From the sequence record MT932213.1: a stretch of DNA of 64,000 nucleotides; one strand, written 5' to 3'. The notes beneath the pieces are model-generated. The model was not told the origin of the DNA, searched no databases, and saw only the letters and a program-made list of their open reading frames with translations. This DNA comes from Escherichia phage VEc74. The translations under genes were made by a program, and so were the position numbers. Position 1 is the stretch's first letter. The number at the start of each line of letters is the position of its first letter. Shown here piece by piece: positions 44,328 through 45,608 of this stretch.

Positions 44328-45188
44328 TTATACCGCCATCTTTCCTTTAATTGGCGGGTGAGATACATAGTTGTTAAGAACGAAATCTTTAGGTCTAAGT
44401 TTAAGAACATATTTTAATTGTTCTTTAGTAGAAAGATATCGGAATTTATAAGGTAGACCACTTATTACCAGCTCACAAAGCTCTTTAGGTTCACGCCTCA
44501 AAATTTCTTTACACTGTTCTACGTGATTCATATAGATATGAGTATTACCACCAGAAAATATCAAATCTCCTGGAATAAGATTACACATCTTAGCTACAAT
44601 ATGAACTAACGTAGCATATGATGCAATATTAAATGGAAGACCGAGAAAAACATCTACCGAACGTTGATACCACTGCAAATCCAAATAGCCATTACGCACA
44701 TTAAACTGATAGAACATATGACAAGGCGGTAATGCCATATATTTAAGTTCAGCTGGATTCCATGCTGAAACAATTTGACGCCTATCATTTGGCAGTTTTT
44801 TAATACGATCAACAACTTCTATAATTTGGTCTACACCACCAAAATCACGCCACTGTTTTCCATAAATTGGACCAAGTTCACCGCTATGATACCCTAAATC
44901 TTTTGCCTGATTTTCGTAATTTTCATCCCAAACTGTTTTGCCTTGGATTAACGAATCGTGTTGAATTAATCGTAAATCATTGACATTTGTGCTTCCCGAT
45001 AAAAACCATATTAGCTCAGCGATGCAAGCTTTCCAAGCGAGTTTCTTAGTCGTTACTGCAGGAAAACCTTTAGTTAAATCCCAGCGTAATTTAGTACCGA
45101 ACAAAGCAATTGTTCCTGTGCCTGTTCGGTCATCGGTTTCATAGCCATTTTCAAAAATGTCTTTAATTAAATCTTGGTATTGTTTCAT
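44328..45188 (-). CDS. td: Thymidylate synthase (uninterrupted, no intron)
   Basis: Continuous 286-aa ORF MKQYQDLIKDIFENGYETDDRTGTGTIALFG... with catalytic PPCH motif. Confidence 0.96.
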   Translation of the reverse strand: MKQYQDLIKDIFENGYETDDRTGTGTIALFGTKLRWDLTKGFPAVTTKKLAWKACIAELIWFLSGSTNVNDLRLIQHDSLIQGKTVWDENYENQAKDLGYHSGELGPIYGKQWRDFGGVDQIIEVVDRIKKLPNDRRQIVSAWNPAELKYMALPPCHMFYQFNVRNGYLDLQWYQRSVDVFLGLPFNIASYATLVHIVAKMCNLIPGDLIFSGGNTHIYMNHVEQCKEILRREPKELCELVISGLPYKFRYLSTKEQLKYVLKLRPKDFVLNNYVSHPPIKGKMAV

Positions 45189-45191
45189 TTA
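45183..45191. repeat. 9-bp direct repeat TAAATGAAA (minus-strand sense), right copy at td start
   Basis: Forward tttcattta; includes the td ATG. Confidence 0.6.
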
Positions 45192-45233
45192 GTACCTTAT
45201 ATAAATTATAATACATTTTATGAAGCTAAATAA

Positions 45234-45593
45234 TCAATACGGTTTAGCATCAAATTTTCTTTCGATTTCAGGAGTGAAATATAATTCTTTACCGCGTTTA
45301 GAAAAGCGACCAATAATATGATAATTATTCTCATCAAACGTAATATTGCCAATATCCATGGCTTTCAACCAAATATCGATATTTCTATCCAGTTTTATAT
45401 CAAAATTCCAATACGGAGAACTATTACCGAAAATACTGCAAGCGGATTCAGTGAAACAACTACTATAAATCTTGTCTTTAGGAACTACTAATTGATAGAC
45501 GCCTTTAATAAACTGAGGACCCTGCCATTTAGGTTGTTTCGCGTCTTTTTCTAATAGAATAGGGTAATAATTAAAATTCATATTTTCCGCCAC
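45234..45593 (-). CDS. Hypothetical protein encoded by an insertion between frd and td
   Basis: 115-119 aa ORF (GTG at 45593 or ATG at 45581); no recognisable motif; lies inside a ~408-bp segment flanked by 9-bp direct repeats. Confidence 0.55.
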   Translation of the reverse strand: MAENMNFNYYPILLEKDAKQPKWQGPQFIKGVYQLVVPKDKIYSSCFTESACSIFGNSSPYWNFDIKLDRNIDIWLKAMDIGNITFDENNYHIIGRFSKRGKELYFTPEIERKFDAKPY

Positions 45594-45599
45594 GTGTTA

Positions 45600-45608
45600 T
45601 TTCATTTA
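45600..45608. repeat. 9-bp direct repeat TAAATGAAA (minus-strand sense), left copy at frd stop
   Basis: Forward tttcattta; contains frd TGA overlapping an orphan ATG-AAA-TAA. Confidence 0.6.

Follow-up and report, generated by a model that had tools for sequence, protein, structure and literature searches.

A small conserved gene between frd and td in T4-like phages and the possible origin of the T4-type junction

The frd–td interval in T-even phages

In phage T4, the genes for dihydrofolate reductase (frd) and thymidylate synthase (td) meet in an ATGA overlap, a junction reportedly described by Purohit and Mathews in 1984. The rII studies of the 1980s are also said to have documented T4 deletions between short direct repeats. 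The gene of interest here, called A1, lies between frd and td, and its closest described counterpart is RB32ORF229c of PHROG 1928, present in T2, T6, RB14, RB51, RB3, RB27 and others. RB32ORF229c agrees with A1 in its frd–td position and, fully or almost fully, in sequence; no difference from A1 is seen, and the family lacks a Pfam model as well as any assigned function or fold.

The locus in phage VEc74

The window analysed is a stretch of 64,000 nucleotides from Escherichia phage VEc74 (MT932213.1), in which frd, A1 and td lie on the minus strand. Comparison with T4 bore out the statement in the earlier note that T4 has an ATGA overlap of frd and td (4 nt), with a single junction TATAAATGAAACAATACC and no ORF in between. 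The T4 and window sequences are identical on either side of the 9-mer TAAATGAAA, the flanks agreeing up to and including one copy, while T4 lacks 417 bp and has a single copy of the 9-mer at the fused junction. Within ~12 nt of its start, T4 td has no Shine-Dalgarno sequence, whereas td of the window has AAGGT and a 45-nt spacer; to judge from sequence, T4 td probably depends on coupling to frd. The features of the locus are listed below, with frd and td taken from the ORF list.

45602..46183, minus strand: frd (dihydrofolate reductase), 193 aa, C-terminus ...VYK* (GTA TAT AAA TGA), DNA end TATAAATGA
45600..45608, minus strand: TAAATGAAA, left copy of the 9-mer, across the frd stop codon
45605..45597, minus strand: orphan ATG-AAA-TAA, its ATG overlapping the frd TGA
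45592..45607, minus strand: 16 nt AAATGAAATAACACGT, including the orphan ATG-AAA-TAA, from a by-eye alignment of frd 3' ends (L187 and L188 against the window and Shf125875)
45582..45591, minus strand: A1 leader GGCGGAAAAT, a weak Shine-Dalgarno, homologous to the last frd codons of outgroups (GGTGAAAA..)
45234..45581, minus strand: A1 ORF, ATG start at 45581, 115 aa, 13.6 kDa, pI 8.5, PHROG 1928
45189..45233, minus strand: A1–td spacer, 45 nt, carrying AAGGT, the Shine-Dalgarno of td itself, at 45198..45194
45183..45191, minus strand: TAAATGAAA, right copy of the 9-mer, across the td start codon
44328..45188, minus strand: td (thymidylate synthase), 286 aa, without intron

The frd product is 97% identical to T4 Frd, and matching phage records annotate the gene as frd, while the td product is 98-99% identical to Td of T2 and T4. 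Unlike td of the window, T4 td is interrupted by an intron carrying I-TevI. The orphan ATG-AAA-TAA behind the frd stop (45605..45597), the 9-mer at the two junctions (exact copies at 45608..45600 and 45191..45183) and the ribosome-binding site of td (AAGGT at 45198..45194), all pointed out in the earlier note, proved real. In the arrangement with A1 only, td would be translated from its own AAGG Shine-Dalgarno and not via coupling to frd. About 30 nt of the A1–td spacer (roughly 45201..45230) are missing from alleles with a short spacer (13-15 nt), and a weak sigma-70-like match, TTGATT-18-TATTAT, lies at 45237..45208. An Rfam search of 44200..46800 returned one match only, which was sub-threshold and due to chance.

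A1 differs from the L010 allele by 15 synonymous and 0 non-synonymous changes and from the Shf125875 allele by 33 and 9, respectively, and its dN/dS of 0.00-0.07 indicates strong purifying selection. An alternative start at GTG 45593 would give a protein of 119 aa; in alleles L011 and L012 this GTG lies in another frame, and it is hence not the conserved start. A version of A1 extended N-terminally from the ATGA overlap was likewise rejected, as the stop at codon 3 is conserved and the N-termini of homologues align with the ATG at 45581.

A1 in other phages

A1 matches PHROG 1928 with E=9.5e-36 (residues 8-115 of the 119-aa translation, profile positions 2-125 of 126), as does A2, its tandem paralogue (7.9e-33). 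The gene is present in T2, T6 and ~360 GenBank phages (362 records at ≥90% amino acid identity), and the exact 115-aa protein, which is already in NCBI as a hypothetical protein (e.g., ACP30875.1), occurs on 341 contigs. Databases thus already list A1 as a hypothetical gene, and the spot that it occupies in T-even genomes is known to vary.

Homologues with 26-66% identity occur in nine other named T4-like genera and in unclassified contigs, the slot being filled in Mosigvirus, Kanagawavirus, Jiaodavirus, Gelderlandvirus, Moonvirus, the CHI14, EcS1 and Cronus groups, and metagenomic relatives. The earlier note had suggested looking for homologues in other genomic contexts; none were seen, as in 23 of 23 inspected loci they stand directly after frd and before td. 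They usually overlap frd (by 1-19 nt in Mineola, CIP9, CGG4-1, Moon and L188) and are often joined by A2 and by C68, a 68-aa gene unrelated to A1 and A2, in the order frd-A1-A2-C68-td, the full A1-A2-C68 set being found in CIP9 and L188. An exhaustive HMMER search gave 17 cluster representatives at E ≤0.001, of which 16 are 99-116 aa long; the remaining one is an 838-aa protein with a marginal match. A word-indexed homologue search gave few matches. By tblastn, A1 was located at one site per record, with frd/td in every match listed and every locus inspected, and no A1 paralogue was found elsewhere within the 64-kb window.

Allele frequencies within Tequatrovirus were estimated from GenBank BLAST results, in which the flanks matched 514-538 records. 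About two thirds of the Tequatrovirus records, including T2 and T6, carry A1 only, and about a quarter carry C68 only (C68 itself occurs in 135 records). The T4-type arrangement is the least common of the three, with roughly 5-8% of records, and the phages with neither A1 nor C68 comprise T4 and three examined phages of sister genera (one Mosigvirus, one Dhakavirus and one Gaprivervirus). Exact-pattern scans of IMG/VR with three junction types and a degenerate A1-junction pattern were abandoned as a source of allele counts, since short AT-rich patterns mainly picked up contigs with no relation to the locus, and a specific junction pattern, found in 2 contigs only, was dropped as well. The earlier note had allowed that an ORF shared by T4 and most of its relatives would speak against an insertion; most relatives do carry the ORF, but T4 does not.

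Across phages of E. coli and Shigella, the amino acid identity of A1 is ≥93% despite a dS of up to 0.9, while it is 26-44% in phages of Klebsiella, Enterobacter, Salmonella, Citrobacter, Serratia and Erwinia and in E. coli phage EcS1. Between genera, identities of 26-44% for A1 compare with 43-54% for Frd and 72-80% for Td. Judged from these comparisons, A1 is an old, conserved resident small gene that is absent from T4 and some of its relatives.

The earlier note had explained the segment by an insertion that carried in an unknown gene, a view that is not supported, homologues being present in the same slot, directly downstream of frd, across other genera. Such a payload would be a transposon-like or homing-endonuclease-driven element whose insertion at the frd/td boundary duplicated a 9-bp target site and delivered an unrelated gene with an accessory or anti-defence function. 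While a 9-bp direct repeat does stand at both ends, the only inverted repeat consists of AT-rich 18-nt arms, 14/18 (78%) complementary, at 45198-45215 and 45595-45612, and one arm overlaps a 9-mer copy instead of sitting inside the repeats. A few GenBank records call the ORF a 'putative homing endonuclease', yet no transposase, recombinase, HNH, GIY-YIG or other domain was found in A1, and 115 aa are too few for a nuclease. The segment is indeed present in some T-even phages and absent from others, but its flanks are continuous with T4, its homologues at 26-66% identity keep to one slot in nine other named genera, selection on A1 is strongly purifying, and no copies at unrelated sites were found by tblastn or in the 64-kb window. 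A foreign mobile payload is largely refuted as well as highly improbable in our estimate, and the corresponding reading of the frd–td segment is not supported.

Origin of the T4-type junction

The best joint explanation, which we consider probable, is that A1 is resident in an old frd–td cassette, that the 9-mer is the microhomology of a T4-type deletion and that A1 may serve to bind a host partner. The cassette sits between frd and td in T4-like enterobacterial phages, with frd-A1-A2-C68-td as its fullest form and each gene overlapping the next, and phages of the T4 group carry reduced cassettes with A1 only, as in the window, with C68 only, or with neither, as in T4. A 417-bp deletion at the two TAAATGAAA copies would have fused the frd stop to the td start and thus created the T4-type ATGA overlap. 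The TAAATGAAA pair is most likely deletion microhomology rather than a target-site duplication. In favour of this polarity counts that all three alleles can be derived from one cassette through simple deletions. In the C68-only allele (fPS-65 and YUEEL01), the C68-td junction is colinear with L188. Over the first 36 nt of td, T4 matches A1-type alleles at 7/7 variable sites and C68-type alleles at only 1/7, and the match at all seven sites excludes a distant donor.

The two TAAATGAAA copies are 417 nt apart, and their similarity extends to 13/15 identity. This extension past the 8-9-mer is not robust, since Shf125875 has TAGCTA where td has CAATAC (1/6 of the next bases matching). In random draws from the real sequence, a 9-mer common to two short windows of such size has p ~0.003 and an 8-mer ~0.011, and the overall range for a chance 9-mer shared by two specified junctions is p ~0.003-0.03. 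TAAATGAAA is a gene-start-like motif that is enriched 2.7-fold here (9 copies vs 3.3 expected), 3/9 copies being placed where an ORF of ≥100 codons begins, and the same 801 nt hold five further direct-repeat families of ≥9 nt.

Some observations were counted against deletion as the polarity: the low chance probability of the junction 9-mer just given, the likeness of the extra 16 nt after GTATAT to the td start, for which duplication is the direct explanation, and the identity of A1 to its L187/L188 homologues, 63-66% where Frd reaches only 48%. It is possible, although less probable in our view, that the T4-type junction arose first in the ancestor of the T4 group and that a close relative with the cassette then recombined into a T4-type genome, leaving a re-insertion scar. 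The left crossover would have been illegitimate, ~12-14 nt into td, and the right one homologous, within td, so that the td start was duplicated and its upstream copy decayed to ATG-AAA-TAA. The improbability of a chance 9-mer fits this history, as do the 16 nt AAATGAAATAACACGT, which the nearest outgroups, L187 and L188, lack and which match the T4 sequence after GTATAT at 12/14 positions; the frd tail and A1 leader of these outgroups are otherwise colinear with the window (GGTGAAAAxCG vs GGCGGAAAAT). However, the likeness past ATGAAA is not conserved (1/6 in Shf125875), and CAA at codon 3 of the orphan ATG-AAA is retained in none of the A1-type alleles compared. The sequence ATGAAATA(A/G) is kept in 11/11 A1-type alleles examined. 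The distance from the frd TAT codon to the A1 ATG, also counted for re-insertion, is 26-28 nt in A1-type alleles and ~0 to 15 nt in outgroup loci, but the extra 16-18 nt need not be a duplication because genera differ in the length of the Frd tail beyond VY, which ranges from 1 to 12 residues.

In every case, Mosigvirus PHB12 included, the A1-type allele comes with a Tequatrovirus-like frd 3' end, which also agrees with re-insertion. The same holds for the presence of the T4-type junction in four genera with diverged flanks; as the flanks are diverged in Mosigvirus, Dhakavirus and Gaprivervirus, this junction is old or recurrent, and a plain count of gains and losses therefore leaves the direction unsettled. 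Re-insertion would nevertheless require a deletion, then an illegitimate gain of A1 and then the loss of A2-C68, and a further, independent gain would be needed to account for the C68-only allele, the junctions of which are free of scars. Simple deletions are mechanistically commoner. Even so, A1 would be native to the lineage and not a foreign payload. Flanking haplotypes of T4-type phages (T4, RB55, HY03 and G28) and A1-type phages are mosaic, and their informative sites near the junction are too few to separate a single deletion from recurrent ones. An A1-type allele in which the left copy still reads ATGAAACAATAC would speak against the deletion polarity that is preferred here.

Predicted fold and possible role of A1

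Searches with A1 as a single protein and as a family alignment gave no match in Pfam, NCBIfam or the defence-protein set PADLOC (in Pfam none up to E 10, including 21 relatives), and the PDB gave no significant match by sequence or fold, in line with the earlier note, which saw no recognisable motif in the protein. No paper on A1 was found in literature searched for the ORF name, the frd–td interval and T-even accessory-gene screens. The AlphaFold2 model (pLDDT 90.9, pTM 0.84) has the order b1-b2-b3-helix-b4-b5, and this predicted secondary-structure order fits OB-fold domains such as SSB, RPA, S1, HIN and Teb1, which also make up most of the weak structural matches. These weak matches suggest an OB-like barrel. 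The invariant residues of the family are Q16, W19, G27, G91, K95 and G97, including those of a Q-x-x-W motif and a G-R-F-x-K-x-G hairpin, and in A2 the residues R92, F93 and F102 are conserved in ≥90% of sequences. Of the invariant positions, the aromatic and basic ones sit in the two loops that usually bind ligand in OB folds.

A1 may be pictured as a soluble 13.6-kDa beta-rich protein, possibly an OB-like barrel, probably made alongside Frd and Td before replication. It could be speculated that A1 is a binding module for a host-specific partner, protein or nucleic acid, contacted via the Q16/W19 loop and the G91-R-F-x-K95-x-G97 hairpin; we regard this guess as the most likely role. A1 would then help in some hosts, yet be dispensable in the laboratory. 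The high identity of A1 within phages of E. coli and Shigella and the low identity across phages of other hosts were counted for a host-specific role, and a precedent is nrdC.1, a T4 ORF likewise named for its neighbour and reported to be a Septu inhibitor (bioRxiv 10.1101/2025.11.20.689424). Against the guess it was noted that dN/dS within the genus is very low, which is unusual for an arms-race gene. A more specific proposal, which we hold to be unlikely, is that A1 and A2 form a new-fold family of small binding proteins, translationally coupled to the genes of thymidylate synthesis, that perhaps neutralise a host-specific factor such as a nucleotide-targeting defence or a host enzyme. If true, the frd–td slot would be a conserved site for host-tuned modulators, missed because the model phage T4 had deleted it.

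Another role, about which we are equally doubtful, is that of an accessory partner of the nucleotide-synthesis enzymes, in which A1 (with A2 where present) would attach to Frd, Td or the dNTP-synthetase complex, or else control the translation of td, and not act on a host target. The constant position of A1 between frd and td across distant genera, its overlap with both neighbours in several of them, e.g., in Mineola (17 nt with frd and 8 nt with td), and the very strong purifying selection agree with such a partnership. However, frd and td occur without A1 in T4 and in those phages of Mosigvirus, Dhakavirus and Gaprivervirus that were examined, and A1 diverges between genera faster than Frd or Td. 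Binding of a host partner remains the preferred role.

Implications

The practical value of these results is mostly corrective. Within T4's own genus, the textbook overlap of T4 frd and td is only one arrangement out of three, and a strongly conserved gene present in T2, T6 and most Tequatrovirus records was never sampled by T4-based genetics. If the host-specific role of A1/A2 is true, A1 would be a tractable target that is small and soluble, with a confidently predicted fold and a natural presence/absence polymorphism, and transposon-insertion libraries, which exist for at least one T4 relative (Bas37), add to this tractability.

Comparison with known systems

The proposed deletion has the same form of product as the repeat-mediated deletions of T4, since the frd–td arrangements differ by one repeat copy and the intervening DNA; for frd–td the direction is inferred from sequences, and the reverse, a duplication-generating recombination, is also possible. 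Like A1, the freestanding homing endonuclease genes of the seg and mob types show presence/absence polymorphism between conserved T-even genes. A1 differs from them in that it has no GIY-YIG or HNH domain, is too small, and stands under purifying selection in stable synteny across genera.

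Layout of the frd-td interval

The genes for dihydrofolate reductase (frd) and thymidylate synthase (td) are separated in the window by a 115-aa ORF, here called A1. An earlier note described this ORF as an insertion with a 9-bp direct repeat at the frd/td boundary, and all features of the described anatomy are present, on the minus strand:

45602..46183, minus: frd, ending GTA TAT AAA TGA
45605..45597, minus: ATG-AAA-TAA mini-ORF, its ATG overlapping the frd stop
Between ATG-AAA-TAA and the A1 ORF, minus: A1 leader, CACGTGGCGGAAAAT
ATG 45581 to stop 45236..45234, minus: A1 ORF, 115 aa
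Between A1 and td, minus: 45-nt spacer with AAGGT at 45198..45194
44328..45188, minus: td, without intron
45608..45600 and 45191..45183, minus: exact copies of the 9-mer TAAATGAAA, the match extending to 13/15

In T4, frd and td overlap by 4 nt at one TATAAATGAAACAATACC junction, and the ORF is absent. The mini-ORF (45597..45605, minus) is in frame with A1; ATGAAATA(A/G) is constant in 11/11 alleles examined, with TAG instead of TAA in Shf125875, and the next 6-7 nt vary freely. The mini-ORF might serve as a termination-reinitiation relay from frd to A1.

A1 is a conserved gene

A1 is a real, conserved and already catalogued hypothetical gene. Its protein is matched by PHROG 1928 (function unknown; E=9.5e-36), and NCBI already has the identical 115-aa sequence, labelled a hypothetical protein, which was seen on 341 contigs. 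By tblastn, 362 GenBank phage records contain A1 at >=90% identity, among them T2, RB14, RB51 (where the copy is named RB32ORF229c), RB3 and PP01, and the segment also occurs in T6 and RB27. Alleles separated by dS of 0.2-0.9 show almost no non-synonymous change (dN/dS 0.00-0.07), with 15 synonymous and 0 non-synonymous differences from the compared locus L010, and 33 and 9, respectively, from Shf125875. GTG 45593 was ruled out as the start since two alleles have it out of frame, and A1 therefore starts at ATG 45581.

The A1 protein has a mass of 13.6 kDa and a pI of 8.5. As a single sequence it had no match in Pfam, NCBIfam, PADLOC or PDB sequences, nor did its family alignment in Pfam and PDB. 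HMMER, run exhaustively against 1.8 billion cluster representatives, returned 17 at an E-value <=0.001, 16 of them 99-116 aa long and one a marginal match to an 838-aa protein. AlphaFold2, using a 19-sequence alignment, gave a model (pLDDT 90.9, pTM 0.84) with strands at 6-12 and 27-34, short strands, a helix at 68-76 and a hairpin of strands 86-96 and 99-104. Many of the weak structural matches to this model are OB folds (HIN, Teb1, S1, RecO, SSB, RPA), and the predicted order of elements fits an OB barrel, which is a lead rather than a result. Invariant residues lie in the first long loop (Q16 and W19), at G27 and in the hairpin (G91, K95 and G97), while R92, F93 and F102 are nearly invariant.

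Alleles of the frd-td slot

Three alleles occupy this site in Tequatrovirus, distinguished by A1 and by a 68-aa gene, C68 (PHROG 9550).

Alleles at the frd/td site in Tequatrovirus
A1 only: this window, T2 and T6; 362 of 514-538 GenBank records (approximate share)
C68 only: fPS-65 and YUEEL01, both with the td intron; 135 GenBank records
Neither: T4, RB55, HY03 and G28; 5/60 evenly sampled GenBank rows

The fused ATGA junction of T4 also occurs in Mosigvirus SHSML-52-1, Dhakavirus WG01 and Gaprivervirus SP18, whose flanking sequences are clearly diverged and whose Frd likewise ends VYK*. The Mosigvirus A1-type alleles (Shf125875, PHB12) have a Tequatrovirus-like frd 3' end. The window td is intronless, as in T2; in T4, fPS-65 and YUEEL01, td is split and accompanied by an I-TevI-like homing endonuclease. 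Intron homing could carry along the allele of the slot, which lies ~550 bp upstream of the td intron site.

More widely, tblastn found A1 homologues at 26-46% identity in phages of Klebsiella, Enterobacter, Salmonella, Citrobacter, Serratia and Erwinia and in E. coli phage EcS1, and metagenomic contigs hold relatives at 63-66% identity. In 23/23 loci inspected, the homologue immediately follows frd and precedes td, and an overlap of 1-19 nt with the frd stop is usual. Most of these genera carry a tandem second paralogue, A2, which shares the Q-x-x-W and G-R-F-x-K-x-G motifs of A1 and matches PHROG 1928 at 7.9e-33, and C68 stands just before td in Kanagawavirus CIP9, the Logan contig L188 and Klebsiella phage R3_1. 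The fullest order is frd-A1-A2-C68-td, in which every gene overlaps its successor. A1 is ancestral to the slot and native to the lineage, and the earlier suggestion of a foreign insertion carrying a payload is not supported, as homologues keep the same slot in every locus inspected and td is continuous with that of T4 from its first base. For the latter reason, any donor was a close relative, whichever of the T4-type and A1-type arrangements came first.

Erwinia phage Cronus (L017, 3559..4297) has the paralogues in reversed order, with a 144-aa A2-like gene immediately after frd and then an A1-like gene abutting td. In Shigella phage SH7 (L198, 1252..1458), C68 is frameshifted in a poly-A run, which points to either a sequencing error or a pseudogene. 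C68 homologues of ~43% identity also occur outside the T4-like group, in Phapecoctavirus (phAPEC8-like) phages.

Deletion or recombination

The T4-type junction was probably derived from the A1-type by deletion. The two differ by exactly one repeat copy and the intervening DNA, and the first 36 nt of T4 td match the A1-type at 7/7 variable sites and the C68-type at 1/7. Single deletions from one cassette can yield all three alleles, and the fPS-65 C68-td junction is colinear with L188. Conversely, recombination into a T4-type junction, duplicating the td start, may have produced the A1-type arrangement, an origin that we consider less likely. It would account for 16 extra nt (AAATGAAATAACACGT) between the frd GTATAT and the A1 leader relative to the closest outgroups, L187 and L188, of which the first 14 match the T4 sequence after GTATAT at 12/14, and the T4-type junction is found in four genera. 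A 9-mer common to two specified short windows has a chance probability of ~0.003; taking the left copy for a relic start site raises the figure to perhaps 0.03, since three ORFs of >=100 codons in the window open with this 9-mer. Speaking against recombination, similarity past ATGAAA is not maintained (in Shf125875, 1/6 of the next bases agrees with td), CAA at codon 3 is kept by no allele, and the C68-only allele would require a second, scar-free gain. In favour of deletion, the Frd tail beyond the conserved VY varies between 1 and 12 residues from genus to genus, so that greater length calls for no special cause. Flanking haplotypes of the T4-type and A1-type phages compared are mosaic and favour neither polarity.

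Regulatory details and upstream genes

As read from the sequences, an AAGG Shine-Dalgarno of its own precedes td in the window; in T4, the ~12 nt before the td ATG contain no such site. The spacer between A1 and td measures 45 nt in the window and 13-15 nt in Shf125875, PHB12 and Ge15, which are devoid of ~30 nt (TTAGCTTCATAAAATGTATTATAATTTAT; about 45201..45230, minus). These extra nucleotides contain TTAGCTTCA followed by TATAAT or TAATTT, resembling the MotA box and -10 element of the T4 middle-promoter consensus; a generic promoter scan gave only a weak sigma-70-like match. A small promoter insert preceding td is one possible reading of this segment. At the frd stop (45602..45610, minus), the A-run reads TATAAATGA (AAA) in the window and TATAAAAATGA (AAAAA) in Shf125875 and ESh16, the comparison being made at the loci L008 (about 745..760) and L196. 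Depending on this 2-nt change, Frd ends in ...VYK* or in a tail longer by 12 residues (KNEI..GGKYEF*), which ends inside A1 and overlaps its start by 11 nt.

An 81-aa ORF (46183..46428, minus), a second gene beside frd that T4 is without, abuts the frd start and lies between frd and the frd.1 homologue (DUF5417, 46439..46681). It had no match in Pfam. The site is only a 71-nt gap in T4 and 255 unannotated nt in the T2 record AY310907, and the counterpart in the SP18 record is called RB32ORF231c-like. Two frd.3-like paralogues (46740..47066 and 47436..47687, minus) flank frd.2 (47026..47391), and both carry MAKV(D/N)IDIVDFEY...GPLEDL...NEYCDGM; T4 and T2 list one frd.3 only.

Function and comparison with known systems

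A1 is dispensable, since it is missing from T4 and from the phages of Mosigvirus, Dhakavirus and Gaprivervirus that were examined, and the overlaps in several genera indicate that it is probably expressed together with frd and td. Among E. coli and Shigella phages A1 is very tightly conserved, while between phages of different host genera it diverges faster (26-44% identity) than Frd (43-54%) or Td (72-80%). From this pattern of conservation, we infer that A1 may be a binding protein adapted to a partner specific to the host. The main functional alternative has A1 serving Frd, Td or the dNTP-synthetase complex in an accessory role. Another T4 ORF that takes its name solely from its neighbour, nrdC.1, is reported to inhibit the defence system Septu (preprint 10.1101/2025.11.20.689424), and adjoining nucleotide-metabolism genes thus does not predict function. 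While A1 was already known as a catalogued hypothetical gene, its A1-A2-C68 cassette context, the reading of the T4 junction as the fully reduced arrangement, and a confidently predicted fold without known relatives are new.
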